Below are positions 9,331-61,286 of a DNA stretch of 64,000 nt, piece by piece. Location: positions 18,109,185 to 18,173,184 of the forward strand of contig NC_092661.1 of the NCBI RefSeq assembly GCF_032118995.1, in the 5' to 3' direction. Each line of letters starts with the position of its first letter. Within the stretch, counting starts at the first letter, position 1. A program made the translations under genes and the position numbers. Under the pieces are notes generated by a model. The model did not search any database. It was not told the DNA's origin and saw only the letters and a program-made list of their open reading frames with translations. Origin of the DNA: Asterias amurensis. Lineage: Eukaryota.

Positions 9331-9719
9331 GAAAGAAAAGTTGCCATTTTCCAATGTGTACCATGTTGACTTACTACTTGCATTTACAAAACGCAACAGA
9401 ATTGCTGTTTATTTTTTTATTTTATTTTTTTCAAAGACATTTTTACTGTAAAAATAACAACATGCATTAATCACATTGTGTGTGCGGATTGTGATGATTA
9501 TACATAACTGAATAGTCTCTATAATGATTGGTGCAGCAATGTGCAAAGCAAATTTATGAACTTGATTAATGCTTTGACAAATATCTCAGGGTTAAGCGAG
9601 GGGTTTAACCCTGCTGAATTCTGTGAATGATACTCAAGCTATAGTCCATTAAGGAAGCTATCAACTTAAACTTCAGGTAAATGTTATGCTAATTGTTTTG
9701 TTTATGTGTCTTTTTACAG

Positions 9720-11806
9720 CTATTCTTGAGGGTAGAGCCAAGTTCCCTACCAATTTCCCACCATTCACTGGGGATGGCCCCCCTCCTGGTTTTCCAGCTG
9801 GGGGTCTACCTCCTGGCTTTCCAGCGGGAGGTCCACCTCCTGGCTTTCCAGCAGGAGGTCCACCTCCTGGCTTTCCACCTTTCCCTGGTGATGGACCACC
9901 ACCCGGTTTCCCTGCAGACGGTTTCCCACCTGGAGGGTTCCCACCAGGCAGGCTTCCTCCAGGATTCGACCCTCACTCACAAATGCCAGCAAGTTTGGAT
10001 CTTCCAGGGATGTCCACTCGCCAAGAGAGAAGACCCAAGCTTGTTGCCAGGCGGCAGCTCACCAAGCCCCAGCACGGCACTCCACCCCCAAATGTCACAG
10101 TGAACCCCTCCAATGGAACCATAAGTTTCAACCCAATGTCCAGAATATCACCCAAGGTGTCTTTATCAGAGGCGACTCCACAAGCTCCTCCACAACAGCT
10201 GCCTCAGCCTTATCGCTCTACAACCCAGGAGGAACACCTCCAGCAAGAGCTCCAAAAATTCACTAAAGCCTTCCAGGATGTCAGTATGCGAGAAGAAGCT
10301 AATGCAAGAGCCTTGTCTGACAGGGATCAAAGTAATATGTATGCAATGCAAAACATGCCCACATCTTTGGAAGGTCTCACTATGAGCAATCAGATTGATC
10401 ATAGTCAACATGGCAGCCAACATACTCTGGATTCCAGCTCAGTTAGCCTTGATACTATTAATCCCGTGATTAACTCCCTGGATTCTGAACTAAATGAATT
10501 TGACACTGATTGGATAGTCTTGAAGACATCTCCACAAAGGGAGAATGACTTTAGCCAAAGTTGTGCTATGGTGTCTTCGGCTACACCTAACCAGGCAGTG
10601 TCCAGTGCTTCCTCTAACCCTTACTCCTGTCTGCAAGGCATCAATGTTGGCAACCCTAAAACTTCCTGCATCACATCAGCACCCACCTCAAACACACCAA
10701 GAAATGCCTCTACAAATCTGCTTAACTGGGATCAGCCATCAACAAAATGGTCTCCCAACCCCATGTCCCATAACAGTGTTGGCGACATTGAACTGGGTTC
10801 ATCTACAAAGTCTATCCCATCTTTCAGTGATGCCCTAGCCCCCATCACCTTTGACGAGCTCATCCCCACTCTTACGCCCAACGAAAAACAAGAACAAATG
10901 GTTATGCAGAGACTTAATGGTGATAACCTTGGGTTCAGATGTGAACCTGAGCCCACTAAGCCAGTGTCAATGCTGATAGTAAACCCCATGCATCAAGCTC
11001 CTCCCGGGCTCGATGATTCATCCATGTGTGCTGGACAACAGTTCCCCGTATCCCTTCCCTTTTCTCAGTCATCAAATACACCTCAAATACCTCCAATACA
11101 AAGAAATGGCGGGCTAGACGCCAGCCATGATTCCTTTACCATGGTGGATTTTCCCAGCATTAGTGATGAGATGTCTCCTGTGAGCCAACAGTATGACAGC
11201 ATGAGCACCACACTGTCTGACAGTCTGTTCAGTCCTACTGGAAACACCAGCGACTTACCAGCCAACTGGCTCCACCAAAGTGTCAACAGTCCGCCCGATA
11301 TCAAATATCCACTGACAGACGAGCAACTTCTCACATTAACAAGTCAACACAATGGTTTCCCTGCAATGAATGCAATTCCCCAGCACAATGGTGTCACCCC
11401 ATCAAGCTGGCTGCAGCAGCCAACTAACCAAGGTACCTTGACCCAGCAACAGCGACAGCATTACCGTCAGCCACACAATATGGGCAGTCCCAGGCAGGCC
11501 TTTGCTCCAGACAACACCTTCAATCAATTATCTCAAGTCATGGTCCACGGAAGCCTGACAGAGCAGAGTTTTTCCAACCAAGAGCAAGTGCATCCAGTCC
11601 TGAATCAAGGAAACCTTTCACAGCAGCAGCGAAGACAAATCATCAATAACTTGAAGGGTCAGTCTATGCAGCCACCAGACTACCAAGCTGTGTATGAGAA
11701 TACAATGGTAACAGAGAATACTCTGCTGACTGGAGCTAATGGATACAATGGGCTTAATGGAGATCAGGAGGTCATTCTTATGCAACAGGAATATGCAACT
11801 ATGAGA
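9720..11806 (+). CDS. AHR: AHR homologue large exon: P/G-rich repeat (PPGFPAGG x4) then S/T/Q-rich transactivation region
   Basis: Acceptor 'tttttacag|CT' completes the codon G+CT=Ala in frame with ORF 9686..11845. Donor 'ATGAGA|gtgagt' falls at 11806/11807. The true exon start is 9720, not the M at 9686. Confidence 0.7.
9780..9960 (+). repeat. Coding imperfect tandem repeat encoding (G)PPPGFPAGG x4-5
   Basis: 'cctcctggctttccagc(g/a)ggaggtccac' units lie within the AHR exon. Confidence 0.6.
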
Positions 11807-12219
11807 GTGAGTATCACAACATTTATTACAGTAAACAGAATTTGAAAAAAGGGTTTTAGATTTGTTTATTTTTATTACGCTCCAACCACACAATGGGAGA
11901 CTTTGAGGCGCTTGGTGGCAGCAGACTTACCAGGTAAATTTTCGTTGTTTGCGTAGTTATGAGCGTGCGCACATTATCGATAACAATGGATTCTACCTGA
12001 TAAGTCTGCTGCCACCAAGCGTCCTGGAAGTTTCCCATTGGCGCCAATGACAGGATTAAAAGGAAATGAAATGAAATGAAATGTTCAGTTTGAGATGTGG
12101 GAGGAAAACCCCAATGGGCTTTGGTCTGATGTGGGATTAAAACTGGGGTCCACTGAAGTGAGAGATTGGGAAAGAAACACTGAGTCAACCTAATCCCCAA
12201 TTGTCTTACTTGGTTGTAG

Positions 12220-14757: not shown

Positions 14758-14900
14758 TGATGTAGAAAGGTTTGCGGTAACACCATGTAATGACTATCTC
14801 TAATGAGTTGGGGTGGTTCTGAAAAGAACCGTTGGTTTCAACTCGACGTTTCGATCAGTATGCTCTGATCGTCTGTTGATCGTCTTCTGGAAAAAGGACC
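14758..14900. mobile_element. Fragment of MITE family G ('ggtttgcggtaacaccatgtaatgactatctc...')
   Basis: It matches the left arm of the full palindromic copy at 47548..47778. Confidence 0.55.
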
Positions 14901-32400: not shown

Positions 32401-33114
32401 TGATTTAGTATGAAATTGAGTTACTTGTACCGTGCTTTGTATGTATTGAAGCTGGTCAGGGAATCTTTCAAGGGTATGGTTGAAAAAGTTGTTCATGAAG
32501 GATGGATAGTTTACAATTTGCAAGACATAATATTCATAATATAAAGCTCCATCTATTAAATTTCCATTTATGAGTTCCTTATTATTTTATTTAACTTAAT
32601 AATTTCCATTTATGAGTTAAATTATTGATAAAGAATCTGGTTGAGATGGTTGAGAATGATTTTATGAGATAAAGCAACCATAATACAAGACTTTGAAATT
32701 GATACAAGGTGGGGTGGCACTTTTTTGCTGCCTGAACCTGCCAGAAACACCATTGCAAACCCCTTTTTTATGCTAAATGCACTTGGTTCTTGCACTGGTT
32801 TTTGTTGTCACAACACATGACCTATGGCTCTACGTCCTATTTGAAGTATGAAGCAATGTGTCTTGCTTAAGAACTCAAGTATCAAGACCGGGACTCAAAG
32901 CCCCACTCTGCTGTTTAGAAACACCAGAGGCTGGTGTGCTTGACTGCTCAGCCACAAGACACCACTATATCATGGACGCCTTGGTGCCCTTTTGAATGTT
33001 CTTATCAGAAAATTTAAATTGTTTTGGTGGCCTTTGTACAGGAAAAATATGAAGCATCGCGCCTAAACATAACATCTATATTTTCTCTCCCTGTTTCTAT
33101 CTTTGTAACACTAG

Positions 33115-38180: not shown

Positions 38181-38206
38181 GTATGTTGTATATTAGATAG
38201 CACATT

Positions 38207-38571
38207 AAAGGCACTGGACACTAATGGTAATTACTCAAAATAATTACTAGCATAAAAACTTACTTGGTAACGAGCAATGGAGAGCTGTTGATAGTGTCAA
38301 ACATTGTGAGAAACTGCTCCCTCAGAAGTAACATAGTTTTTGAGAAAGAGGTAATTTCTCACTCAAATAATAAAAGACTTTAGCTGAAGCGTTTTATTAA
38401 GCATCTGAAAGCGCACAATTTGTGCAACAAGGGTGTTTTTTTGTTTATTATTCTCTTGCAACTTCGATGACCAATCGAGTAAAACTTTCACAGGTTTGCT
38501 ATTTGATGCATATGTTGGGATACACCAAGTGAGAATACTGGTCTTTGACAATTACCAAAGGTGTCCAGCCG
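38207..38571. mobile_element. MITE family A copy (GOGAT intron 11)
   Basis: 'aaaggcactggacactaatggtaattactc…attaccaaaggtgtccagccgtt'. Confidence 0.7.
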
Positions 38572-38710: not shown

Positions 38711-39429
38711 GCGTTTCGTGAAATCAGCTGCTGTGCCTTTAAATGGTCTGAGGATGGACAGTCGATGCTGAGGTACTGGATGTGTGCCTCAGGATCTAAT
38801 TTGTCAACTTTCAATACTTACTGAATCCGATTCCACATTAGATTGCTTTACTACACCTCATACAGCAGATTGACATTTACGTGTTCTATCTTTTCATGTA
38901 GTTGTATTGCTAGAGCAGTATATGTGGGCATGTGTTCTACACTGCTGTGACAGTTCCACGACTGCTTCAGAAAGTGCATGCATAGTAGACTAGCATGTGC
39001 CACTTAAGCCTACTACATGTATGTATGCATATTAACCCTGTGCATGATTGTTTGTTTGCGCGGGTTGAAAAGCGATTATAGCATCTGGAACATTATGGTA
39101 AATGGACCATCAAGCAAATGGCTCTCAAGCATAAATATGTATGAGGTTTATTAACCTCATACATATTGTGGTATAAATTAAACATTTTATTCATTCTCAA
39201 AAACTGAAATGCTGTATGAAATTGTTTTTAAACTGTTTTTACTACTTGGGTTGGACTTTAATCTGTAAAAGCACACAGACAAGACGAACACCATTCTTCT
39301 CATACAAACAATTTTGAGAGTCAATATAATATCTGCAAATAATGTTCTTTAGTTGACGTGAATTCAGCGGGAGCAGTTCACATGCAGGTCATCAATCCCA
39401 GGGACTTCATGTCAATTAGCCTTTTTGAG

Positions 39430-40075
39430 GTATAAACCAGTGTTGTAGCCATGGTGGGCGGTGCTGGGCGGTTCTGCCCAGAACTAACAAATTTGGCCCA
39501 GCACTCTGAGCAAAATACACTGTGCTGCCCAACACAGATTTCCTCCAGATTGCACTTCAGTAATGATGGCCCCATACACAGATGTATACGATTAGTCGTC
39601 AGTGTTGTAGCCACGGTGGGCGGTACTGGGCAGGGTCTGCCCAGAACTAACAAATTTGGCCCAGCACTCTGAGCAAAATACACTGTGCTGCCCAACACAG
39701 ATTTCCTCCAGATTGCACTTCAGTAATGATGGCCCCATACACAGATGTATACGATTAGTCGTCAGTGTTGTAGCCACGGTGGGCGGTACTGGGCAGGGTC
39801 TGCCCAGAACTAACAAATTTGGCCCAGCACTCTGAGCAAAATACACTGCGCTGCCCAACACAGATTTCCTCCAGATTGCACTTCAGTAATGATGGCCCCA
39901 TACACAGATGTATACGATTAGTCGTCAGTGTTGTAGCCACGGTGGGCGGTACCGGGCAGGGTCTGCCCAGAACTAACAAATTTGGCCCAGCACTCTGAGC
40001 AAAATACACTGTGCTGCCCAGCACAGATTTCCCCCACATTGCACTTCAATAATGATGGCCCCATTTCTAACATGA
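39430..40075. repeat. Satellite-like tandem array, unit ~163 bp x ~4 (GOGAT intron 11)
   Basis: Unit 'gtgttgtagccacggtgggcggtactgggcagggtctgcccagaactaacaaatttggcccagcactctgagcaaaatacactgtgctgcccaacacagatttcctccagattgcacttcagtaatgatggccccatacacagatgtatacgattagtcgtca' recurs at ~39441, 39604, 39767 and 39930. It generates the repeated minus-strand ORFs 39378..40039. Confidence 0.8.
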
Positions 40076-40758
40076 TTAATGTTGTTGAACTGCTTGCCCT
40101 TGGTGGACTAAATTGGATTTAGAGCCCACCACTATAATTGGTCTAGCTACAACACTGAGTATGGAGGACACTATAGTAGTGCACTGTTCGGTTTAAGTGT
40201 CTCCAGATAAAACTTACCCAAACCTAATAGTGTCATAGGGCTGTGTCCACTATACCTCAAAATGGCTATAGAAAGGAATGCCAATCAGCACAGTGCACAC
40301 AAATTGCTTGAGGTCAGTTTGTAGCTTAACAAAAATCAGACAAACAAATATGATTGGCATTGGCCTACTTATCTAATGCCACCTTCTAAATGGTGAATGT
40401 TTGAATCAACCATATACAAGTAAAAATAAACTATGAAATTTGGGGAAAAACCTTGAAAAAACCCCACAACTTTCAGCCTGTAAATACATTGTCAGTGATT
40501 TTGGTTGTAACAACTGAAATCAGCTGTTGCATTTTTTTTTAGGTTAATGAATTAATTTCAGAGGAAAATATTTCACAATTTTTTGTTATTTAAAGGGAAA
40601 TTTTTAACAGAAAAAAATGATTCAATTATGAACTTCATAACCAGTTTCGCTTTCGAGTGAAATTAACAATGATTTTGGTTATCCTTGCCGATCGTGTATA
40701 TTCTCTTTAATAGTTTCTGTAATTTTAAGATTGTCTGTATACTCTGTTGTTTCTATAG

Positions 40759-41726: not shown

Positions 41727-42334
41727 GTAGGTATCTTTTTATCAAATTTCCCCTAAATTTACTAAATAATTTACCATTATAGGCATGATATTCTTCTAAC
41801 TTGAGTCTGATTTCTGATTTGGTTGCCCTTGGAAAAATCACTAAAACTGTGGTTTTTAGGTTTAAAAGTTGATTTAATCCTACCATATGAACAAGTTTGT
41901 CAGCCCTTGAACTAAAAACATTTTTCAGAATTCTTTCCAAGGACCAATTATCATGCTTGATTACAGCTTGCTTTGTTTTGTTATTTTGTTGAAGTTTCAA
42001 ACATCCACTACCCCTTTATTGGCCGTGCCTGAATGAGCAGCTATGGCTATTGCGTTGAAGTATATGATTTCCTTAGGAACACACTTAGCAACAGCTGTAG
42101 CCGTAACCGCCAAGATGTGTAGTCACATGTGGCCTATCCTGTCCTTCGTCTCTGTGTGTTAGCCTTGGCTTCTACACTTTTCATCATCTATCTTCTCTCA
42201 GCAAAGATCTTTCTTTTTGTTACAATTGTCTAGTGATCTTGACCTACATTTAACTTAAATTTTTTCAAAGAAACCTGCTTTTGAAGTTTTGTAACAATTT
42301 TGGGTTTTACATTAATTTTGGTTTTACCCATATA

Positions 42335-42455
42335 CACTGATGTATCTTATAGTACTGTATGCTCACCGATAAAAATCACAGGCATATTACTTGGGTGGGA
42401 TTTGAATCCATGACCTTCGCAATACTAGAGCAGTGTCTTACCAGTGTTGGGTTTT
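42335..42455 (-). mobile_element. tRNA-derived SINE (family S1), inverted partial copy ending 13 nt upstream of the exon 14 acceptor
   Basis: The reverse complement reads 'cccaacactggtaagacactgctctagtattgcgaaggtcatggattcaaatcccacccaagtaatatgcctgtgattttt'. It matches the heads of the copies at 48296 and 52594. Confidence 0.6.
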
Positions 42456-42467
42456 GTCGTTGTTTAG

Positions 42468-42777
42468 TTCCGCGTTGGCTCTTGGAGCAACCCATCACCA
42501 TCTGATCAAGACTCGACAACGTCTCCGCGTCGGCCTGATCGTAGAGACGGGTGAAGCCAGAGAGATGCACCACATGTGTTTGCTCCTTGGCTATGGTGCC
42601 GATGCCATCTGCCCATACCTGGTCTATGAGAGCGTACAGAGTCTAAGGGATCAGAACCTACTAGGTGAAGAGGTCTTCACTGATGAAGAGATTGCTTTGA
42701 GATTCAAGAGTGCCACAGCTAAGGGGATTGCTAAGGTCATGGCTAAGATGGGAATCTCCACACTGCATAGCTATAAG
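42468..42777 (+). CDS. GOGAT exon 14: (S)SALALGATHHHLIKTRQRLRVGLIVETGEAREMHHMCLLLGYGADAICPYLVYESVQSLRDQ…KVMAKMGISTLHSYK
   Basis: 'tcgttgtttag|TTCCGCG' ... 'CTATAAG|gtaatag'. It matches ORF 42433. It carries 'AVHHHL' and 'GYGA.AI.PYL'. Confidence 0.9.
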
Positions 42778-43037
42778 GTAATAGTTCTGTCTCTTCAAAA
42801 TAATGATCACATAAGAATATTATACAAACATTGGGTACATGTGTTTAATTTCGTAAAATATAATCACAAGATCAAATCTTGAGGCGAAAGGTGATGTAAA
42901 ATGGAAAACAAAATTTCACTGAGTGATTATTCTGTGACAATGCACAAATAAAAGGCATTCAATACTTGTTATATGATACTAGATGTTTTCTTTTTCTGTC
43001 TTACCAGTGTGCCTTCACATTGTTCCCTGGGTCCAAT

Positions 43038-43190
43038 TTAACAGGGCTGCTTAAAGCACAACAAGCAGCTAAGCACAACAAAATGATGCTTACCAGAATA
43101 AAGTCACCAGCCAAACTACCATGTCACACATTAGCAGAAACATGTTAAGCTCAATATTCTGCTTAAGCTCTATGAAATTGGGCCCAGCTT
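43038..43190. mobile_element. MITE family B copy (divergent)
   Basis: 'gggtccaatttaacagggctgcttaaagcac…gctctatgaaattgggccc'. Confidence 0.55.
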
Positions 43191-43301
43191 TCCCACTTCC
43201 CCCTGCCGTCAGGAACTCCTGTCAATACTGTCATACAGATTGGAGTTGTCTTGAGTTGAATCTACTGATTCTTTAACACCATATATTGTATCTTTCTTTA
43301 G

Positions 43302-43412
43302 GGAGCTCAAATATTTGAAGCTGTAGGCCTTTGTCAAGAAGTGGTTGATAAATGTTTCCTCGGTACTGCATCTAGATTGGGCGGTGCTACGTTTCAAGTG
43401 TTGGCTGAAGAG
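43302..43412 (+). CDS. GOGAT exon 15: [37 protein letters not shown]
   Basis: 'tctttctttag|GGAGCT' ... 'GCTGAAGAG|gtgagc'. It carries the conserved 'GAQIFEA.GL'. Confidence 0.9.
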
Positions 43413-44246
43413 GTGAGCTTTGTTTGTCTAGTTTTATAACAGGTATACATGAGATCCAGTAATAACTGTCATGTGCCTAGCAGAAGGTACTACTTACTGC
43501 TCACAAGTTTTTTGGGTGGTCTCAAAGACAAACATATTTTACTGAAATGGTTCTAAAATTATCATGAAGCAGGAAAATAAGGGCATCAAATAGCTTGGTT
43601 AACTTGGTTTTTCACTATATATATTGCTAAAAACAAACCTGATCTAATTTGCGATTGTTTTTTTAAGAATTATTAGTTTCTGCTAATAAAACGAAGGGTG
43701 CCTCAAAAGTGAACTTAATCAATAACCCGGAAGCCTGAGGAAACCCGTAGACAAGGGTGCTTACAAGGAACCAGAAACACTGAAGTTAAACCCCTACTCT
43801 TCCATGATTATTGTTGTGGGTTTTTCTACATACATTACAAAACACAAGGGGTGGCTTCACGTCTTATCCAGAAGGACCAAGCAATTAGGATAAAGTATCT
43901 TGCATAAGAACATAGGCGTTAGGACCTGGAGTGCGTTTTGGCGACCCCAACCAAAAACTGTTGCGGTTGTTGGTCGTTGTGCGGTTGTTGTGCGCTCGGT
44001 TACTGTTTTGGTTATGACGTCGGAAACAGCTTTTGGTTGGGGTTGCCAAAACGCACTCCAGCCTGGCCAGGATTCAAACCCATACTCTCTGAGTGACAGA
44101 ACTTGATTATGGTGCATCAAAACAATAAGATGCACTCACTAGACTGCTCGATCACAACTCTCTTCTTTATGGAGCCAGTCACTTTTCTTTCGTGAAATAA
44201 AAAAAAATTATGGCAAACTTGCTCATGAATGTATTTTATCCATCAG

Positions 44247-44444
44247 GCTCTGCAACGTCACTTCATAGCCTACTCAGATCGGGATGGTGACATCATCACA
44301 AGTTTGGAGCCTGGACAATACCATTGGCGCAGTGGGGGTGAAAAGCACATCAATGACCCCACCAGTGTGGCTAATCTACAAGAAGCTACCCGCAACAAGA
44401 GTCAAACGGCCTATGATAAATTTAGAGAGTCCCAGGAAGCTGTG
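44247..44444 (+). CDS. GOGAT exon 16: ALQRHFIAYSDRDGDIITSLEPGQYHWRSGGEKHINDPTSVANLQEATRNKSQTAYDKFRESQEAV
   Basis: 'ttatccatcag|GCTCTG' ... 'GAAGCTGTG|gtaaacc'. It carries 'G.YHWR.GGE.H'. Confidence 0.85.
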
Positions 44445-44900
44445 GTAAACCATACTGTCCTTTTTTTAGCCGATAAAAAAAACTATAAAAAAACAAATTA
44501 TTCTCAGGCAATCACATTTAAAAAAGCAATCAAACACATAAAAAGAGCATAAGCAATCAAAAGACTGAGGTAAGTGAACTAGCTGGAGCCCGATAGATTG
44601 CCTAAAAGAAATAAAGCTTTTGTCTAGAGGCTCTTCTATCCAGCTGGTTTTAAGAAGAACAAAAGTCTAACCTCTCTTTAAGTACCCTGATTCGACAAAT
44701 TACCTTGTTTGTAAAGTTGTAAGGACCATTTTCCCCCATTTCACCTACTGCCACCCCTGTATCTAAATATGCATTTCCCCTTGCATCGAATTGTTTCATT
44801 TTTGTAAAAAGATTATGGCCAAATTTCTTGACTCTAAACTTAAAGTTTAACATTTTATTATTGGCAGTATGGACTTAATGTACTTTGAATCACTCCCCAG

Positions 44901-45073
44901 ATCAGAGACTGTACCCTGAGGGGTCAGCTTGACCTTCAGATGGCCTCTACTCCTCTTGATCTCTCTCTGGTTGAAGACGCTACCAGCATCGTCAAACGAT
45001 TCGTCACTGGTGCTATGAGCTTTGGAAGTCTGTCTATTGAGACACACACAACACTTGCACGTGCCATGAACAA
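44901..45073 (+). CDS. GOGAT exon 17: [57 protein letters not shown](K)
   Basis: 'cactccccag|ATCAGA'. The donor 'AACAA|gtaagag' is placed before the in-frame TAA. Phase out is 2. It carries 'F.TGAMS.GS.S.E.H..LA.AMN'. Confidence 0.85.
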
Positions 45074-45289
45074 GTAAGAGACGGGCCTCACTGGTTATTC
45101 CAGCTGCATAATGATACAATTTGGTAAACAAAAGTACTTGCTACTTACTTACTTACTTAAGTCGAGTGGTGTCCTCGAATCACGATGGTTCCACAACCCT
45201 TCCTGTCCCCCACTGCCAACTTGAAATCTGTTGATTCAAAACCCGTGTCGATTTTGAGAATGTCAGTGTAAGTTAGTTTAGCAGGTTTC

Positions 45290-45650
45290 CTCCTCCCATG
45301 CTAAGGGGTCCACAGAACAATATTTGATACTGGTTCGTCTTTGCTCCTGTAGCAGTGGCCAGCAAAAACGCATCCTTCTCTGATTTTTGTTGATAGCTTG
45401 GGTAGGCTCCCATATAAGACTTTGTTGGTCATATGTTGGCTCCCGTGGATATTGAGAGCTGTTCTTAATAGCCTTGTGTAGCACCCATTTATCTGCTTTT
45501 CCAGTTTTGGAGTAAGAGTCCATGCCACACTTGCTATGTGGACAAGAAACACCAGGGTTAACCACTACTCTTTCACAATAACTGGTTTCTTTTAGGGGCA
45601 CTTCCAATCCTAGTAGACCCACAGCTTTACATTACAACCCATCGGAAGGA
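45290..45650 (-). mobile_element. Degraded non-LTR retrotransposon 3' fragment (RT C-terminal tail motif '…KIREGCVFAGHCYRSKDEP…', cf. the 'RRLRWAGHV.R' tail of CR1/L2/RTE ORF2)
   Basis: The minus-strand ORFs 45278..45622 and 45301..45552 in GOGAT intron 17 are frame-shifted relative to each other. The family assignment rests on motif memory only. Confidence 0.4.
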
Positions 45651-45820
45651 CGAAGCAATAATGGTTAATTGTCTTGCTTGAGGACACAGCTGTCAAGACA
45701 AGTACTCGAACCAACACTCTGCTAATCAGGAACACCATAGCTTAAAACCAGTGCTAATAACTGCTCGGCTACAACACGCTGTTATTGATTACTTGCTTGT
45801 TTTGGTTTTTTTTTACTAAG

Positions 45821-46034
45821 AATTGGGGGTAAGAGCAATACAGGAGAAGGTGGCGAGTCTGAAAACCGTTACATCAGCAATGATCCTAGCAACAGTACAC
45901 GATCAGCCATCAAGCAGGTTGCTTCAGGTCGGTTTGGAGTCACTAGCTCCTACCTGGCACATGCTGATGAGTTACAGATCAAGATGGCGCAGGGAGCAAA
46001 GCCAGGTGAAGGGGGAGAGCTCCCGGGATATAAG
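45821..46034 (+). CDS. GOGAT exon 18: (K)[71 protein letters not shown]
   Basis: 'tttttttttactaag|AATTGG' ... 'GGATATAAG|gtactt'. The frame agrees with ORF 45984. It carries the FMN-domain hallmarks 'KSNTGEGGE' and '[18 protein letters not shown]'. Confidence 0.9.
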
Positions 46035-46545
46035 GTACTTACTGGACTTCAATCGCTCTTATTAACAAGCCTGGATCATACTTTGAGCAAAAAGCCAATG
46101 TCTGTGAAATTCATGTGCTGTTTTCCAATTGTTATGCAAGGGAGTTCACTTCACTTTCACAATTCAAAAGAAGTATGAACTGGCTAGAACTGTTTTAATA
46201 TTCCTTATTTCTTATGTCACACGGATGATATGTGGCTAGGAATGCAAGAATAAAGTTCTACTTTTACGCTTTAGTTAATTAATCAAATTGATTTGGATAT
46301 TCCTCACTGATAAACCAGGATGATTCTGAAATAACAATGATAAAGGTAGTGAGTACAGGTTTGGAAAAGCACACTGTTTATCCCCTCCCTATGTCACGTC
46401 ATAAATAACGTCACAAGGTTTCTCGCATCGTCTCATTTCAGATAGAAATAAGAATTAACTATACAAAAATAGTGAACTTTATGGTGCAACCATGTAGTAG
46501 AAATAATTCACTCTTAATTAACTGCTACTTTAATGATTTCTCAAG

Positions 46546-46746
46546 GTGTCTGAAGACATTGCCAAGACTCGATCATCCATCCCAGGTGTAGGGCTAGTCT
46601 CCCCGCCTCCTCATCATGACATTTACTCCATTGAGGACCTTGCAGAGCTCATCTACAACTTGAAGTGTTCCAACCCTGAGGCTAGGATCAGTGTCAAGCT
46701 AGTGTCGGAGGTCGGTGTTGGGGTCATCGCTGCCGGAGTTGCCAAG
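46546..46746 (+). CDS. GOGAT exon 19: [67 protein letters not shown]
   Basis: 'gatttctcaag|GTGTCT' ... 'GTTGCCAAG|gtaaacc'. It carries '[14 protein letters not shown]'. Confidence 0.9.
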
Positions 46747-47303
46747 GTAAACCAGATTTATGTCGGAACACAATAGCAAATCAAACCTTATGGAAATTGA
46801 GATTTTGCACCGTGGGATATAAAACATACACCTAGACTGGGCAGTGCATACTATGGTGAAGAATCAAATGTGATTTTGCTTTTTGAAAGATCATGGACTC
46901 CCCTTTAAGAACCTATACCTTTGGGTGTCTTTTGGCCCATCCCTCATGGCCATTTTTGATTGCCCTTTAACTGAAGGGCCACAGACCAGGTGACTAGAAT
47001 GTTATTAGTTTATGTGCTGTACTTTTTCTAGACTTTGCTTTGCAGGCATTTTTTGTGCAAAATGTTTGGAGCTCATAATCATTCAAATCTCAGCAGCACA
47101 TTTCTTTAATTAAACTCAGAAAGGAATGATATAACAACCTGTAATTAAAGGTCTTCGAGAAAGGCTCTGTTATGGTCCAAATGTTAGGTCACTTTCTTTT
47201 TTTTTGCATTTATACCATTCACGGGATGGTAAGCAGCTTTTATCAAATTACTTTTGACGTACGACTAGAATTAACAAGATTGTGTTCTGATTGATTTACA
47301 CAG

Positions 47304-47484
47304 GGTCTAGCTGAACACATTACCATCTCTGGCCATGATGGTGGCACAGGAGCTAGCACCTGGACAGGGATCAAGCATGCAGGGCTACCGTGGGAACTAG
47401 GTCTCTCAGAAACACACCAGACGCTGGTACTGAATGACCTCAGGTCAAGGGTCAAAGTGCAGACTGATGGGCAGCTCCGAACTG
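47304..47484 (+). CDS. GOGAT exon 20: [60 protein letters not shown](G)
   Basis: 'gatttacacag|GGTCTA' ... 'CGAACTG|gtaggg'. It carries '[11 protein letters not shown]' and 'G.PWELGL'. Phase out is 1. Confidence 0.9.
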
Positions 47485-47547
47485 GTAGGGACAATACAAA
47501 CCTCTAATAATATTAAGTAGGATTTGAAACTTTGTATGGTGGAAATA

Positions 47548-47778
47548 CGATATAGAAAGGTTTGCGGTAACACCATGTAATGACTATCTCTAAGAGAGAT
47601 ACCAAGCTAATGCGCCTCCACAGTACTTAAGCAGCATGCAGCATCAGAGTCCAGCTTTCTCCAGAAGACGATTAGAGCATACTGATTGAAACGTCGAGTT
47701 GAAACCAACGGTTCTTTTCAGAACCACCCCAACTCATTAGAGATAGTCATTACATGGTGTTACCGCAAACCTTTCTAT
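47548..47778. mobile_element. Palindromic MITE family G, full copy (TIR 'GGTTTGCGGTAACACCATGTAATGACTATCTC')
   Basis: 'aggtttgcggtaacaccatgtaatgactatctctaagagag…ctcattagagatagtcattacatggtgttaccgcaaaccttt'. Fragments lie at 14758..14900 and 50826..50945. Confidence 0.7.
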
Positions 47779-48239
47779 ATCTAATAATATTGTTTAATTC
47801 AAAACTAAACCTTTCCTCCAACTGGACTGGATGACACTTGAAAAAAAAAAGATTTGATTGAGGCACCTTATATCCCGATCCTCACAGAAATTTTAAAAAT
47901 TAGTGACAAGCAAAACTGGAAGTGAAAATATAATTCAATTTTTGGGTGACAAAGAAAAGTTTCCTGCAGCTTCTGGAATAATGTGCTGGTGCTCTACCAA
48001 CTAAGCAGTAAAGCTCTAATGATGCTTGTACTCCCTGTTGTGTCAATATCTTTGTTCCCGGGCTGCCAGTCAGACGCCATTCAACCTTTAACTGACGTGT
48101 AGCTAGGGATCTTGTCCAAGTTCACAAATCAACCTGGGAAGCGGCAAGAGAGGGATCACTTTCAGGGGATGCAACTTTTTATTTCAAAAGTCAGTAATAA
48201 ATCACAAGGGACACTGACTTGGTAAATTAACATCTATTA

Positions 48240-48478
48240 CATCGTTGCGGTACCCGCTACTAAAAGCATAATATTCGAACAGCCTCTAGCTACTGGGCAA
48301 TCTCGGCGGTCTAGTTGGTAAGACACTACTCTAAATTTGCAAAGGTTGTGGGTTCGAATCCCCCCCAAGTTATATGGCAAGAATTTTTGTTCACAGGACC
48401 CTGGAAAGCACAGCGTGTGTATAATGTACAAACCTAAATTAACAGTCCTGATCCCTGATGCAAATTGACCATCTATTA
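48240..48478 (+). mobile_element. tRNA-derived SINE (family S1) ending ~30 nt upstream of the exon 21 acceptor
   Basis: The tRNA-like head is 'ggcggtctagttggtaagacactactctaaatttgcaaaggttgtgggttcgaatccccccc', with D-arm and T-arm boxes. The tail '…ccctgatgcaaattgaccatctat' matches the copy at 52594. The flanking 'catctatta' is repeated at both ends and may be a target-site duplication. Confidence 0.65.
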
Positions 48479-48508
48479 AATTAACTTGGTTGTATATTTT
48501 GTGTGTAG

Positions 48509-48642
48509 GTCGTGATGTGGTAATAGCAGCTCTCCTTGGTGCTGATGAGTTTGCTTTCTCTACAACACCTCTTATTGCCCTTGGATGCATCATGATGAGA
48601 AAATGCCATCTTAATACTTGCCCTGTGGGTGTGGCAACGCAG
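48509..48642 (+). CDS. GOGAT exon 21: (G)[44 protein letters not shown]
   Basis: 'ttttgtgtgtag|GTCGTG' ... 'GCAACGCAG|gttagagc'. It matches ORF 48490. It carries 'CH.NTCPVG'. Confidence 0.9.
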
Positions 48643-48829
48643 GTTAGAGCATTTGTTGGGGTTGATATGTTTGGGAGCATTGCTAGTGAGGTCTGGATCA
48701 AATATAACACGTTGCCCAGCTTTTTGTAACTATGAAATGTTGTACTGGTATCAGAAATATATCAAAACGAAGAAAGAAATGCTTGCAATCAGCAGTAAGA
48801 TAACCCTTAATATCTGTATGTGATTCAAG

Positions 48830-49114
48830 GATCCAGAATTGCGAAAGAAGTTTGACGGTGAGCCAGAACACGTCATCAACTACTTCTTCATGCTCGCCGA
48901 GGAGGTTCGTCAACTCATGGCCCAGCTGGGCTTCCGTAGCTTCCAGGAGATGATCGGACGCACAGACAAACTCAAGGCATCGGAGCAGCCAGCCAATGAG
49001 AAGTGTCGTATGCTGGATTTCAGCAGGATCTTACAGCGAGCTGATGAGATGAGGGTAGGGGTGAATATCATCGGAGGGAGTAAAGAGCAAAATTTCAATC
49101 TGGGAAACAGATTG
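48830..49114 (+). CDS. GOGAT exon 22: DPELRKKFDGEPEHVINYFFMLAEEVRQLMAQLGFRSFQEMIGRTDKLK…NIIGGSKEQNFNLGNRL
   Basis: 'gtgattcaag|GATCCA' ... 'AACAGATTG|gtaagtta'. It carries the conserved 'QDPELR.KF.G.PEHV.N'. Confidence 0.9.
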
Positions 49115-49807
49115 GTAAGTTAACTTGTCTTCATTGTTTGTTGATTGGTTCATTTGTGTAGTGCCCCTCTTTTAGAGACTCCTTATAAGGAGTTAGAAAA
49201 TGTCGCACCCTAACAAGAATCGAGTTCACATTTTCAATTTTTTAAGAGTACAATTTTGCGATCCTGCAATATTGTCCATGTGGCACACTTGCTAGTCTGG
49301 ACAGCTGATTGGCTGGCGTGTGATCTGTTTGCCATGGTTATGTCTTTCTGATTGGGTAAGGTACTCTAAGTAATAAAAAACTGTATCTACTTCTCCAGCC
49401 AACAAGCTGATGTGTTCTCATTTTTGCTGCTTTTAAACAGCCTCCTGGATGCCCCTACATATCACATATACAGTGATGTGAAAGGTTGAGATTTGGAAAC
49501 AGAGTTCACAAAGTTATTTCTTTTACGATATTCTGAACAGTTTTGTCAAGTATATTTGGCTTGCAGGGGACTTCTCAACAGTCATCTCAACAATACTATA
49601 TGTACAAATTATTTTAAGTTTATTGGTGTTTCAGGGCTCCATTTTCAAGGAGGTAAAATCCAATCGCAAAACTACTGGTCCAATGCTAAAATCACTGGCC
49701 TTCCGCGGGCCAGTGGTCAGGTGTAAATTTTGAGCCATGGTCTTTCTTGTTTTACTACCAACTTGTTACATCTTAATTAATTGATTTACCTAACTTATTT
49801 TGGACAG

Positions 49808-49932
49808 GACAATAAATTGATAGAGGCAGCCCAAGATGTATTGGACGGCAAGAAGGATAGTGTATCTCTAGAGATGGACATTACTAGTCAGAGCAGAGCG
49901 TTTGCCACAACTCTCAGCTTCGAAATCGCTAA
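49808..49932 (+). CDS. GOGAT exon 23: DNKLIEAAQDVLDGKKDSVSLEMDITSQSRAFATTLSFEIA(K)
   Basis: 'ttattttggacag|GACAAT' ... 'ATCGCTAA|gtaagata'. Phase out is 2. Confidence 0.8.
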
Positions 49933-50401
49933 GTAAGATATCAAATCACCAACTACATCCTAGGACAAATAATTATTATCTTTTGGTACCCTTTAATGGT
50001 CTCCAATTTTAGAAGTGAGAAAAATGAGGCAAAGGGCCAGACTTCAAGATATCCAAGTAGATTTCAAGAAGAAAAAACATTACATTTTTATTTAATTTTC
50101 TTGGTGATGGTTTGAAAAATTGACTTTAGTGCTACTCTAGTGTTAATTTTGCATCCACTGAAGTTGGTTACCTACAAGTTGCCTCATACGACACAGCCCT
50201 TAAGTCAACATATGTAAACTCTAAATGTTGAACCCCCAAATACAAAGTAAAAAGTAGTCAATGATTATTAGTTTTTAGATGATTTTAAGTTTGAAGCCAA
50301 ACAAACTTTGTATTTGATAACATCTGGAAATCAACAATGTTTTACCCAAAGTAGAAATCAATATTCACTAGATCTTAACATGTGTTTAAATTTCAGCAAT
50401 T

Positions 50402-50751
50402 TTAAAGGCACCGGACACATTTGGTAATTGTCAAAGACCAGTATTCTCACTTGGTGCATCCCAACATATGCATAAAAAAACAAACCTGTGAAAATTTTGA
50501 CTCAAATGGTCACCAAAGTTGCAAGAGAATAATGAAAGTAAAAAACCCAACTTTGTGTGCTTTCAAATGCATAATACAAGGCTTTAGCTTATTTGATTGA
50601 GATTAACTCTCTCAAAAAAAAACAAAGTTACTTCAGATAGAGCCGTTTCTCACAATTTTGTATACTATCAACAGCTTCCCTTTGCTCGTCACCAAGTAAG
50701 TTTTGTGCTAACAATTATTTTGAGTAATTAACAGAAGTGTCTAGTGCCTTT
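50402..50751. mobile_element. MITE family A copy (GOGAT intron 23)
   Basis: 'aaaggcaccggacacatttggtaattgtcaaagacc…attaacagaagtgtctagtgcctttaaa'. Confidence 0.65.
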
Positions 50752-51012
50752 AAAAGGAATCTTATATAAGAAGCTTTATCAAAAGTTGTTTTAATTTGTA
50801 TTGTTGCAAGGGAGACCATACTTACAGTATGGAAAAGTTTGCGGTAACACCATGTAATTACTATCTTTAATGAGTTGGGGTGGTTCTGAAAAGAATCGTT
50901 GGCTTCAGCTCGACGTTTCGATCAGTTTGCTCTGATCGTCTGAGACTTACACTGTCTGTATTTACCCCTAAACCATCTTCTATTTCTTTGTTTTAATCGT
51001 GTGTTGTATTAG

Positions 51013-51151
51013 GAGGTTCTGTGAGACTGGTTTACCAGAGAAGTCAATCCAGATTAAGTTGAAAGGTTCTGGGGGTCAGAGTTTCTGTGCGTTTCTCTCC
51101 CATGGTGTCTATGTTGAATTAGAAGGAGATTCTAATGACTATGTTGGCAAG
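51013..51151 (+). CDS. GOGAT exon 24: (K)[46 protein letters not shown]
   Basis: 'gtgttgtattag|GAGGTTC' ... 'GTTGGCAAG|gtaatatac'. It carries the GXGXG-domain 'G.AGQSFGAFL..G…L.GDANDY'. Confidence 0.9.
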
Positions 51152-51779
51152 GTAATATACAAATAATTGTTGTTTTCATCTAAACCTTTTATGAGCAATC
51201 CCCGGAGTGCCTACTTAAATAAGCCACTAGTTGAAAACCGATTCAACACACTTTGATTCCATTCATAAATACCTTTTCGGTCAAAAAACAGCAACACTTT
51301 TCGTCAAAAAGTAAAACAAATGCAAAAATTATAATTCTTCAATGATTTCTTTCAACTCAACACCCCTCCAGCTATGAAAAGGTAAGGCCCTCGGGTAAAC
51401 AACTCCTTATAAGGAGATTGCTGTGCGCGTCGCGCGTATCGCTTAATGTGGCACAACTGTCCCGGCCGTTGCTTTCGACCAATAGAAATGAAGAAACTGT
51501 CTTATAAGCACAGGTGCAAGCTCACGTGTCGCATGTTTCAACATTTGTTACTGGTCATTATCAAAGGTTTAAACACCCCCACGTAACGCGCTCTCCACCA
51601 ATAGGAATAGCAAAACTGTCTTAGGTATTTATGAATGAATAATAATTAATAATAATACTATGATAATAAATAGTAGTGCGCACATATCCACCCTGCTGGG
51701 TTTTTAAGGCGCAGATTTAGTAAGAATAAAACAAATTATAACTAAATCTGCTGCACTTCTGTGATTGAATCCTCTGAAG

Positions 51780-51965
51780 GGTCTATCAGGAGGCACAGTT
51801 ATCGTCTATCCACCCAAAGATTTACCCTCGGACTTCAAAACGGAAGATAACATCATCGTAGGCAATGTGTGTCTGTATGGAGCTACTAGGGGGACGGCTT
51901 ACTTTAGAGGTGTAGCTGCTGAGAGATTCTGTGTACGCAACTCTGGAGCTACTGCTGTGTGTGAA
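51780..51965 (+). CDS. GOGAT exon 25: [62 protein letters not shown]
   Basis: 'cctctgaag|GGTCTA' ... 'GTGTGTGAA|gtaagg'. Next comes GVGNHGCEY, exactly as in GOGAT '[22 protein letters not shown]'. Confidence 0.85.
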
Positions 51966-52048
51966 GTAAGGGACATATCATTACTTCAACCAATTTAATT
52001 CACAATGTTTTTACTTTAACTGTGCTGTAGCCATTTTTATCATGACAT

Positions 52049-52423
52049 TAAAGGCAGTGGAAACTGTTGGTAATTACTCAAAATAATTAGCATAAAACCT
52101 TAACAGGGAGAGGTTGACAGTGTAAAACATTGTGAGAAACAGCTCCCTCTGAAGTGACATTCATGTAGTTATCGAGAAAGAAGTAATTTTCCACGAATTT
52201 GATTTCGAGACCTTAAATTTAGAATTTGAGGTCTCAAAATCAACCATCTAAAAGCACACAGCTTCGTGTGACAAGGGTGCTTTTTTCTTTCGTTATTATA
52301 TTGCAACTTTGACGGCCAATTGAGCTCAAATTTTCACAGGTTTGTTATTTTATGCATATGTTGAGATACACCAAGTGAGAAGGCTGGTCTTTGACAATTA
52401 CCAATAGTGTCCAATGTCTTTAG
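52049..52423. mobile_element. MITE family A copy (GOGAT intron 25)
   Basis: 'aaaggcagtggaaactgttggtaattactc…attaccaatagtgtccaatgtctttag'. Confidence 0.7.
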
Positions 52424-52593
52424 ATGATGACATTTCAGTTGGTAACAACGGTTAACTTGCATCTAAACAAGCATGATTTGTTCAATTGTTCAATTTTATT
52501 TAGCTTTATTAGGTAAAGTTATTGGTTGATTAATAATGAGTAGTTATTGATATGAGTATTTAGTCAGCGTAATTAAATGTATCATTGGTGGTC

Positions 52594-52783
52594 TATTTGG
52601 TATGACACTGCTCTACAATTGCAAAGATCGTGGGTTCAAATCCCACCCGAGTAATATGCCTGTGTTTTTTTGTTTTCACAGAACTCTGGGGAAAGTACTG
52701 AGTATACAGTGCTAACACACATCGGTTTATATGGGTAAAACCAAAATGAATATTTTTATCCCCGATGCAAATTTAACATCTAT
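52594..52783 (+). mobile_element. tRNA-derived SINE (family S1) flanked by a 9-bp direct repeat 'atcattggt', ending ~30 nt before the exon 26 acceptor
   Basis: The head is 'ggtctatttggtatgacactgctctacaattgcaaagatcgtgggttcaaatcccacc' and the tail is '…ccccgatgcaaatttaacatctat'. The direct repeat lies at 52585-52593 and 52783-52791, consistent with a target-site duplication. Confidence 0.7.
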
Positions 52784-52816
52784 CATTGGTTTATTTGTTT
52801 GTTTGTTTATGTGTAG

Positions 52817-52932
52817 GGTGTTGGTAACCATGGTTGTGAATACATGACGGGTGGGCGGGCCATCATTCTTGGACCCACTGGATGTAACTTTGCTGCTGGC
52901 ATGTCTGGAGGTATTGCTTATGTCTTGGATAG
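52817..52932 (+). CDS. GOGAT exon 26: [38 protein letters not shown](R)
   Basis: 'tttatgtgtag|GGTGTT' ... 'TTGGATAG|gtaaattt'. Phase out is 2. Confidence 0.9.
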
Positions 52933-55805: not shown

Positions 55806-56090
55806 AAGATTCTCTGGCGTGTCATGTCCGAGTGGTTAAGAGCACCGGATTAAAGCTCTTTATGTTTTGATCAGCAGAGTGTGGGTTCGAATCTCGGTCA
55901 TGACACAGGCTACGTAAAATTGGGGAGGTAGTGCTTTCTGCTCTGCCGACCAGGCTTGGGACTGTAAAAGGGGTCATCCTCTTTCACTAGGAGTAGGTGG
56001 CAACGGCCTCTGGACAAAATAATTGTAGCCCACACCTTGTGGTGACTTGCATAACAAAAAACTATCAAAGAGGCTTGTAACTAAACATTC
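55806..56090 (+). mobile_element. Second tRNA-derived SINE family (S2), copy immediately downstream of the exon 30 donor
   Basis: 'gtcatgtccgagtggttaagagcaccggattaaagctc…gatcagcagagtgtgggttcgaatctcggtcatgac' has a D-arm 'GAGTGGTTAAG' and a T-arm 'GGTTCGAATC'. A partial copy lies at 58085..58175 ('…gatcagcagagtgtgggttcaagtttcag'). Confidence 0.5.
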
Positions 56091-57828: not shown

Positions 57829-58421
57829 GTAATAACATTTTCAAAATAATGGGCCATAAAAGATATATCTTTAGCACTTTGTTTTTATTAATTAAAGTTT
57901 ACTGTATTGTTGAGTGATGGCTTTTTCAGATTTGTTGTTGGAGGTTGGCAAACATTTGGGAATCAAAGACGATCTTGGTCTGCCTCACAATTCTTTCTTG
58001 AACAGAAAATAAATGGGATTCTAAAAAAGTGAAAAGATCCTGGCAATGTTTTCTGTAATTTTAAGACCTACATGTTTCAGAAGTTCTTACTGTCATTGGG
58101 GAGTCGAACTCAAGCTCTGGTGTTTCTGATCAGCAGAGTGTGGGTTCAAGTTTCAGTTTTGGCATTTGTGTTTGTTTGCGGCTTGCTAGACAAATAAAGA
58201 ACACAGTTAGATTTATCCTAAATAGAGACATGGTTTGTTCCTATGTTTCTTGCATGGATGGCAGCAGAATGCACCACAACACCTTGTAAATTCCTTTGAG
58301 GTGCTACATAAATGTACATGTAGGTGTCATAATACACAATCTTAGCCAACACTGCCATAAACATTTCTCCACCTCAGAATATTGGCACATCATAAATGTT
58401 TCTTGTTGTCATTTTGATCAG

Positions 58422-58585: not shown

Positions 58586-59333
58586 GTAAGCTACCCTCAA
58601 AGGTTTAGTACCGAATTAGTTTCATCGTCAAGTCGTTTTGCTATGTGTGCACACCAAAATGTGGATTTCCACTTGGATTGCTTTTAATTCTGTGAGATGA
58701 CGATCAAATTAAAATAAGTAACTATTCAAAAACAGTTTCAACAAAAAATGAACATACAATTTTAAATCTTCACAAGTCCCTTGGTTATTTTGTTCATTGG
58801 AACATGATTATTGGAATGAATTCATTTCTCCCAAAACTATGCTTAAATGTACATATACTTTTTGATAAAGAGGTTCTTTTTTTTAATTTGGTATACATGT
58901 ATTTCTTTCAAAACAAGTCTTTTAAAGCCATTGGTGACTTTCGGTAAACAGTATTTTCCAAAGGCCCACACTACGTGTATCACAACTTATATATAAAATA
59001 ACAAACCTGTGAAAAAAAGGCTCAATCGGTCATCGGAGTAGGGAGAAAATAATGGGAAAACCCACCCTTGTTTACACACGTTTCTCCGTGTCATGACATG
59101 TGTTTAAAATAAATCCGTAATTCTCGATATCGAGAATTGATAATTGTTTAATGTTTTCTCAAAAAGTAAAGCGTTTCATGGAATAATATTTCAAGAGAGG
59201 TCTTTCACCATTACCTGCTGTAAACCCTGTAGGTTATTTGTAAATCTGTGATTTATTATTTTTTTTACTGTTCCGAAAGTGTCCAATGGCTTTAAGTCAA
59301 CATTTATTTTGATGTGCATATTTCTGTCCTCAG

Positions 59334-60612: not shown

Positions 60613-60652
60613 GTAAGATTGATTTTATGTTATTGAAGCTACCCTTTTCTCT

Positions 60653-61037
60653 TTAAAGGCAGTGGACACTATTGGTAATTACTCAAAATAATTATTAGCA
60701 TAAAACCTTACTTGGTAACGAGTAATGGGGAGAGGTTGGTAGTATAAAACATTGTGAGAAACGGCTCCCTTTGAAGTGGCGTAGTTTTCGAGAAAGAAGT
60801 AATTTTCCACGAATTTGATTTCGAGACCTCAGATTTAGAACTTGAGGTCTTGAAATCAAGCATCTGAAAGCACACAACTCCTTGTGACAAGGGTGTTTTT
60901 TCTTTCATTGTTGTCTCGCAACTTCGACGACCGATTGAGCTCAAATTTTCACAAGTTTGTTATTGTAAGCATATGTTGAGGTACACCAAGTGAGAAGACT
61001 GGTCTTTGACAATTACCAATAGTCTCCAGTGTTTTTA
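60653..61037. mobile_element. MITE family A copy (GOGAT intron 35)
   Basis: 'aaaggcagtggacactattggtaattactc…attaccaatagtctccagtgtttttaaag'. It carries the spurious ORFs 60695..60877 and 60708..60944. Confidence 0.75.
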
Positions 61038-61286
61038 AAGCATGCAAAGGTAAAACAATGAAAGCTAAATGTTTTTATGTTATTTATTTCTAATTAGAGG
61101 ACAAATACTATGGACAAAGTTGCCATTATGCTCTTTTAACAAAAAACTATGAATAACAAAATATATTTTTGTACATTTCTGTAAGTTCAAAAAATTGATA
61201 GAGTCAGGAATAAAAGTGTTGCTATAAGGAGGTTATAATTTTATGAACAAATTCATATATATTTTTTTTCCTCATCCATTTGTCAG

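Follow-up and report, generated by a model that had tools for sequence, protein, structure and literature searches.

Three copies of one tRNA-derived SINE family lie next to splice acceptors of a glutamate synthase gene in Asterias amurensis

Short interspersed nuclear elements (SINEs) of the SINE2/tRNA class, as defined in Repbase, are mobilised by long interspersed nuclear elements (LINEs) via target-primed reverse transcription. In mammals the 100 bp next to an exon are depleted of SINEs, and acceptors are avoided by the few that come within 20 bp of an exon; the mutagenic insertions of Alu are all located inside these 100 bp, for the most part near acceptors (PMC3088655). An intronic SINE near a splice acceptor of canine FAM161A is likewise a cause of disease (PMC3976383). 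Here we describe a stretch of 64,000 nucleotides of Asterias amurensis DNA (contig NC_092661.1, positions 18,109,185 to 18,173,184 of the forward strand; called the window below, its first letter being position 1) in which three copies of one tRNA-derived SINE family, named A, B and C, lie immediately upstream of exons 14, 21 and 26 of a gene for NADH-type glutamate synthase (GOGAT). This is the zone that in mammals is poor in SINEs and where insertions lead to disease, and the locus is a clear natural example of an essential, ancient gene that has withstood retroposons at so short a distance from its acceptors. We think it probable that the SINEs inserted independently into introns 13, 20 and 25 and were tolerated there, and that their clustering at acceptors mostly reflects compact introns, tolerance and chance.

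The GOGAT gene has many exons and runs on the plus strand from ~24.5 kb to beyond 61.3 kb of the window. More than 30 collinear exons were laid out by tblastn with E. coli GltB and GltD, and a contig carrying a eukaryotic GOGAT (L009), used as query, added exons 23, 29 and 34. Domains PF04898, PF01645 and PF01493 were found in homologues of the exon peptides. Exons 20-22 and exons 25-26 can be joined in frame at the boundaries given in a first-pass annotation, these exons match E. coli GltB/GltD as well as a eukaryotic GOGAT, and the reading frame is intact across the exons next to the SINEs. The 33 introns have a summed length of 30.8 kb.

Searches of the whole window with blastn, and with an nhmmer profile built from 12 copies, detect only three members of the SINE family (nhmmer E = 1.8e-57, 1e-51 for copy C and 1e-33 for copy A), the next match having E = 0.013. 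The heads of C and B score 42.7 and 29.3 bits against the Rfam tRNA model RF00005, whose gathering score is 29, and copy A keeps the 3' two-thirds of the tRNA-like module; no intact tRNA gene was found in the window by ARAGORN. The three elements upstream of exons 14, 21 and 26 are thus one tRNA-derived SINE family, as had been proposed in that first-pass annotation, made from the letters of the window. The ends proposed there (42455, 48478 and 52783) fall within ~2 nt of a boundary of the SINE or of its target-site duplication (TSD), but the start given for copy A, 42335, is ~26 nt too far in. By pattern scan we found the same element on seven JGI metagenome contigs (JACSEG01...), which are unannotated and carry about eight further copies, 90-98% identical to the 255-nt consensus. 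The viral and prokaryote genome collections that we scanned for SINE copies gave no match, and neither did a literature search with SINE sequence strings.

The full element is non-coding, ~255 nt long, and consists of a leader of ~65 nt, a tRNA-like module, a body and one of two 3' ends. The leader runs AAATCGTTGCGGTACCCGCTGCT...GGGCAATCTC and is not tRNA-like by Rfam. The short 3' end finishes ...AAAACCAAAATTAATA (also given as ...AAAATTAATA), while the long one adds ...TTTATCCCCGATGCAAAATTAACATCTAT, the family consensus finishing ...TTAACATCTAT, that is, CATCTAT; there is no poly(A) or simple-repeat tail. The TSDs of the family range from 9 to 16 bp (10 bp for metagenome copy L011, 11 bp for L016 and 15-16 bp for L012), and copies A, C, L012 and L014 are truncated at the 5' end. 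With its Rfam-scored tRNA-like head, a non-coding unit of this size and dispersed copies that conform to one consensus, the family resembles the SINE2/tRNA class, with which it also shares the length of the TSDs, the 5' truncations and one 5'-inverted copy. These last three features are typical of retrotransposition mediated by LINEs; neither the window nor the fetched loci contain a LINE. The family differs from that class in the leader that precedes the tRNA-like part, in the two alternative 3' ends, in the lack of a poly(A) or simple-repeat tail, and in tail-to-head junctions found in copies B and L017.

The 5'-inverted copy is that of L011 (positions 19-200), where the tRNA head is inverted with respect to the body and tail and the whole is flanked by the TSD GTGTTATGTT; the structure looks like that expected from twin priming in a LINE-mediated insertion. 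The tail-to-head junctions (...AACATCTATT/AAATCGTTGCGG..., the slash marking the junction) are seen at 48224-48244 in the window, at 1632-1730 in L017 and at 1320-1335 in L013. The part of the other unit's tail that stands before the leader amounts to 7 nt in B (ATCTATT) and 90 nt in L017, and in L013 10 nt of SINE tail are found inverted at the same place. Such a pattern would fit a reverse transcriptase that, on reaching the 5' end of one SINE RNA, switches to the 3' end of a second.

All three window copies are flanked by perfect TSDs of 9 bp. Copy A is separated from exon 14 by 12 nt counted from the TSD (GTCGTTGTTTAG) and by 21 nt counted from the SINE end; the corresponding distances are 23 and 32 nt for copy B and exon 21, and 26 and 35 nt for copy C and exon 26. 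With 93.5% identity to the family consensus, copy C is the youngest of the three (A has 83.0% and B 81.9%), and the earlier claim that it is a recent insertion with a clean 9-bp TSD (ATCATTGGT) holds. An interpretation of ATCATTGGT as SINE sequence and not as a TSD was ruled out, as the family alignment overlaps only its final GGT.

The history of copy A can be followed in relatives. Contigs 92-98% identical to the window come from ENA metagenome assemblies (contig names beginning SOLA22) and from one other assembly. Copy A and its TSD are common to L002, L018 and L019, whose introns are 92-95% identical to those of the window. L003 (SRR26532981) and L001 (ERZ26222911) lack copy A and already have the acceptor, reading TGTTGTTGTCTAG/TTCC where the window reads GTCGTTGTTTAG/TTCC (the slash now marks the splice junction). 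The window without SINE A and one TSD copy becomes ...TGTAACAATTTTGGGTTTTGTCGTTGTTTAG/TTCC and aligns with ...TGTAGCAATTTTTTGTTGTTATTGTTGTTGTCTAG/TTCC of L003, so that the excision restores the colinearity of the two. The exon 14 acceptor is thus older than SINE A, because relatives with the empty site already have it; an empty site with the acceptor in place is what the first-pass annotation had named as evidence against a part of the SINE in splicing, and L003 and L001 provide it for copy A. Judging from these alignments, the insertion of copy A split a longer T-rich tract. Two other segments of the window, at 39407-40214 in intron 11 (807 nt) and at 42101-42178 in intron 13 (77 nt), are missing from L018 and from L002, L018 and L019, respectively, and represent additional differences by insertion or deletion.

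Introns 13 and 20 can also be older than the SINEs that they contain. Intron 13 occurs without a SINE in L003, L001, L020 and L021, and intron 20 occurs without one, and at the same position, in the distant relative L020, where it measures 437 nt compared with 1024 nt in the window. This bears on an origin of the introns or acceptors from the SINE itself, in the manner of introners, or from duplication of a SINE-plus-acceptor module, which could account for the fact that B and C are both followed by similar T/G-rich tracts ending TGTGTAG/G. We consider such an origin extremely improbable. An intron that is missing where the element is missing, as expected of an introner, was not found for introns 13 and 20, and the introner-like form of the proposal is rejected since both introns are present in relatives without the SINE. 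The tracts, TTGGTTGTATATTTTGTGTGTAG for B and TTATTTGTTTGTTTGTTTATGTGTAG for C, are located 3' of the TSDs and are absent from the family consensus. As to the shared module, GTGTAG acceptors occur at three SINE-free exons (25105, 27826 and 60341), which led us to reject it; with 5 of the 31 acceptors in this gene, GTGTAG is a common form here.

The position of the tracts also answers the proposal that the SINE tail supplies the T-rich sequence before exons 21 and 26. These tracts are pre-existing intron, because they lie 3' of the TSDs, and we rejected the tail as a pyrimidine tract given that the consensus tail ends CATCTAT and that the tracts are outside the TSDs. No pyrimidine tract or acceptor built of SINE sequence was found at any of the three exons; that of exon 14 consists of the TSD of copy A plus old flank.

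For introns 20 and 25 we looked for orthologues by exact look-ups of open reading frames of the window (exons 21 and 25), which gave no match, and ten more variants of these reading frames were absent from the collection. Protein searches with exons 21-22 and 25-26 were dominated by conserved GOGATs of unrelated taxa. Two contigs from another haplotype of the same species as the window, L005 and L006 (97.7% identical), were considered as a possible empty or filled site for copy B and set aside as uninformative, because they break or chimerise inside an abutting miniature inverted-repeat transposable element (MITE). In L005 the MITE is preceded by an exon that belongs to a different, unrelated gene (positions 1-675); the contig is evidently a chimeric assembly joined through the repeat, for which reason its sequence upstream of the MITE is uninformative on that haplotype. 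The MITE of this haplotype stops 28 nt short of the exon 21 acceptor, at the very place where SINE B of the window also ends, and the MITE and SINE B look like an insertion polymorphism at the same spot.

Branch sites were read with human introns as the reference, whose consensus is yUnAy; there, 92% of branch points are adenosines and 83% fall in the zone 21-34 nt upstream of the acceptor (PMC2367711). At exon 14 there is no adenosine between -23 and -2, and all adenosines between -24 and -57 are within SINE A. The branch point of this exon is thus predicted to lie in SINE A, because every adenosine in that interval is SINE sequence. The best candidate, CTTAC, is a perfect match to yUnAy and the sole one, has its adenosine at the modal distance (-27), and provides one of just two adenosines in the 21-34 nt zone; it is the antisense of the conserved GGTAAGAC in the tRNA-like head. 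Only one AG intervenes, at 42443-44, 3-4 nt from the candidate branch adenosine at 42440, and an AG at that distance is too close for use in 3' splice-site selection. The likely ancestral branch site of intron 13 is TGTAAC at 42291-96, which now lies ~175 nt from the exon 14 AG, with several AGs between. The branch point of exon 14 is therefore probably derived from copy A.

The situation of the other two exons is different. Exon 21 has two candidates, TTAAC at -24 in the proximal TSD and TTGAC at -40 in the SINE tail; the former counts as host sequence because it was regenerated by the duplication of the target. Exon 26 has host TTTAT at -23, ATCAT at -31 (in the TSD) and TTAAC at -40 in the SINE tail. 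Pre-existing candidate branch points thus appear to survive in the TSD or flank of both B and C. Of the earlier suggestion that SINE sequence contributes branch points, the part that concerns copy A is well supported by prediction, no host adenosine being available between -2 and -57, but B and C keep candidates outside the SINE.

The case of copy A invites comparison with the exonisation of Alu elements, in which an antisense SINE also gives the host intron a splice signal, here probably a branch point. In Alu the antisense poly-U serves as pyrimidine tract of a new exon, whereas the signal of copy A would serve a constitutive exon that existed before. This SINE, unlike Alu, has no poly(A) and hence no poly-U, and the pyrimidine tracts described here are host or TSD sequence.

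If SINE sequence carries a branch point, it could be asked whether the copies have been kept by selection because they aid or regulate splicing, either through branch points or through double-stranded RNA formed between A and B or C, with circular RNAs of exons 14-20 or 14-25 as a product. That the exon 14 branch point would have to lie in SINE A agrees with this, and so does the SINE tail, which in B and C alike places a TTAAC or TTGAC exactly 40 nt from the AG. The antisense copy A (intron 13) and the sense copies B and C (introns 20 and 25) bracket exons 14-20 and 14-25 as do the inverted repeats that promote circular RNAs; Liang and Wilusz (2014, PMC4201285) report that short inverted intronic repeats are enough for circularisation in human cells. 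By blastn, A aligns with B at 82% over 61 nt and with C at 72% over 156 nt, and the predicted duplexes have -111 kcal/mol (A with B) and -170 kcal/mol (A with C), compared with about -50 for shuffles; the pairing, unlike that of the described repeats, is a prediction only, and a regulatory role based on it is speculation. On the other hand, relatives without SINE A have a longer and better pyrimidine tract, which speaks for an insertion that was tolerated and not for one that improved splicing; better-placed branch candidates exist outside the SINE for B (-24) and C (-23); and in A and B, now down to 82-83% identity, nothing points to conservation above the neutral level. We regard a selected function as quite improbable.

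Since the proximity of the SINEs to acceptors is what makes this locus stand out, we estimated how often it would arise by chance. With insertions distributed uniformly in introns, the probability that an insertion point falls within 35 nt upstream of an acceptor is 3.8%, giving 5.6e-5 for three of three; the probability for either splice site within 50 nt is 1.3e-3. These figures are post hoc, the pattern having been noticed first and tested after, and their values flatter the pattern.

Such low chance probabilities (5.6e-5 to 1.3e-3) speak for an insertion bias, in which the endonuclease or the priming of the partner LINE would prefer sequences typical of the branch-point and pyrimidine region, so that the family gathers at acceptors genome-wide. 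All three target sites are located in the zone from -12 to -34; the target of B, TAAATTAAC, agrees with the SINE tail motif AAAATTAAC in 8 of 9 letters and includes the branch-site-like TTAAC, and the target of A is T-rich. Several observations argue against such a bias, which we hold to be unlikely. The six readable target sites (TTGGGTTTT, TAAATTAAC, ATCATTGGT, GTGTTATGTT, TCAGATTTTAGTTCG and AAATAAATCAT) have no common motif. Copy A is inverted, and a strand-specific nick preference would there have met the complement. The 3' flank can be read for five JACSEG01 copies, and in four of these no tract resembling an acceptor comes after the element, to judge by eye on unannotated contigs; the fifth, that of L017, is followed by CTTTTTTTCAG, but by eye stop codons come afterwards in all three frames. 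Finally, unrelated elements, including the MITE, which resembles a DNA transposon, adjoin splice sites of this gene too: TTAA-flanked MITE-like copies start 21 nt past the exon 11 donor and 30 nt past the exon 35 donor, and another repeat stops 41 nt before exon 4. A fuller version, in which the family or its LINE partner integrates preferentially in the branch-point and pyrimidine zone, perhaps because its TTAAC-containing tail pairs with targets that resemble branch sites, as at copy B, and in which host branch points are routinely replaced and inverted pairs such as A and C drive circular RNAs, seems to us more doubtful still.

Independent and tolerated insertions, then, remain the explanation that we find probable, and the clustering at acceptors is most likely not a designed function. 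Each insertion would have been made by target-primed reverse transcription of the LINE type, leaving a 9-bp TSD, and would have persisted because the core signals of the 3' splice site were spared. In the case of B and C, the staggered cut would have fallen at or just upstream of the old branch-point region, so that the duplicated target, the intact T/G-rich tract and the AG still adjoin the exon. For A, the cut would have separated the old branch point from the AG; a short pyrimidine tract was retained through the proximal TSD, and a CUUAC that happens to occur in the antisense head of the SINE may have taken the place of the displaced branch point. The insertion of A is taken as tolerated because three contigs of the same taxon, or of a very close one, carry it as the window does, and the reading frame is intact. 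The clustering would then most likely be a joint result of compact ancestral introns (~150-800 nt in the close relative), a general tolerance in this gene for mobile elements that reach the core signals, and chance or ascertainment. In that relative, L001, introns of 156, 284 and 448 nt correspond to introns of 2557, 1733 and 737 nt in the window.

Like the disease-causing SINEs, those of GOGAT precede an acceptor by a few tens of nucleotides and occupy the zone of branch point and pyrimidine tract; the former lead to exon skipping and are selected against, whereas the intact frame next to the latter suggests tolerance. The locus is unusual by mammalian standards, yet it fits a gene into whose compact introns mobile elements have moved until they border on the core signals. 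Four points nevertheless weigh against our explanation. The empty site was obtained for copy A alone, and not for B or C. Under uniform insertion it is improbable for all three copies to lie within 35 nt of an acceptor, the value of 5.6e-5 rising to ~7e-4 if ancestral introns of ~400 nt are used. By analogy with the depletion of SINEs near mammalian exons (PMC3088655), pure chance would be an uncomfortable explanation. Lastly, correct splicing and use of the proposed branch points are assumed from sequence, and with them the neutrality of the insertions. Should the pattern prove true genome-wide, the family would be a retroelement that targets splice regions and from which new branch points steadily arise. 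Otherwise the locus illustrates ordinary intron growth by mobile elements, and the family consensus, the TSD length and the types of end would still be of use for annotation.

Table. Coordinates of exons, SINE copies and other mobile elements (window positions unless a contig is named)
Feature	Position	Strand	Remarks
GOGAT exon 14 (Glu_syn_central domain)	42468..42777	+	tblastn with GltB/GltD; domains of homologues
GOGAT exon 21	48509..48642	+	in-frame join of exons 20-22; tblastn
GOGAT exon 26 (GXGXG domain)	52817..52932	+	in-frame join of exons 25-26; tblastn
SINE copy A	42309..42446	-	antisense; 5'-truncated within tRNA-like head; short 3' end; blastn, nhmmer
TSD of A, distal (TTGGGTTTT)	42300..42308	.	
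TSD of A, proximal (TTGGGTTTT)	42447..42455	.	now part of exon 14 pyrimidine tract
Predicted branch site CTTAC	42437..42441	+	A at 42440, -27 to exon 14; inside SINE A
SINE copy B	48239..48476	+	sense; full length; long tail ending CATCTAT; 7 extra nt at 48232..48238
Parts of copy B	leader (~65 nt) from 48239; tRNA-like head 48300-48372	+	followed by body and tail
TSD of B, distal (TAAATTAAC)	48223..48231	.	
TSD of B, proximal (TAAATTAAC)	48477..48485	.	contains branch-site candidate TTAAC (A at 48484, -24)
SINE copy C	52590..52781	+	sense; 5'-truncated, no leader; long tail; tRNA-like head 52582-52654
TSD of C, distal (ATCATTGGT)	52581..52589	.	last 3 nt overlap SINE homology
TSD of C, proximal (ATCATTGGT)	52782..52790	.	
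MITE-like copy	58944-59299	-	
MITE-like copies	52045-52435, 50388-50754, 38202-38568, 60643-61055		at least 5 more
MITE-like copies on other contigs	L005 676-1067; L006 1-123		
Second tRNA-like, SINE-like element	55812..56060	+	ends approximate; ~30 nt past exon 30 donor (55781)
Antisense fragment related to second element	45706..45779	-	blastn 74.7% over 75 nt, E = 7e-6

Other mobile elements are found throughout the gene. The MITE-like family is abundant, ~360-390 bp long and flanked by TTAA, with terminal inverted repeats AGCCATTGGACAC.../...GTGTCCAATGGCT. A second SINE family had been annotated directly after the exon 30 donor. An element does start close to that donor, at ~55812, and its box motifs (GAGTGGTTAAGAGC...GGGTTCGAATCTC) are tRNA-like by eye, but it has no Rfam tRNA match at E <= 1. 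The antisense fragment related to it stops 40 nt short of the acceptor of exon 18 (45820), and other weak relatives are found at 58112-58147 and 32879-32923 of the window and at 12-87 of L013.

A canonical histone 3' stem-loop (Rfam RF00032, 35.7 bits) was detected at 47705-47750 (+) inside a repeated element at 47549-47790, and the element recurs at 14790-14835 (-), at ~50828-50942 and, in the related taxon, at 9082-9186 of L001. Within intron 20 the element takes the form of a long inverted repeat, and the whole looks like a mobile element that captured the 3' end of a histone mRNA. Intron 15 contains an antisense tRNA-like remnant, AGGATTCAAACCC, at 43860-44110; it is split by a perfect inverted repeat of ~37 nt (43926-43962 and 44025-44061), which suggests a nested insertion. 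Lastly, an intronless open reading frame of 719 codons at 9686-11845 (+), with N-terminal proline-rich PPGFPAGG repeats, occupies the GC-richest part of the window.

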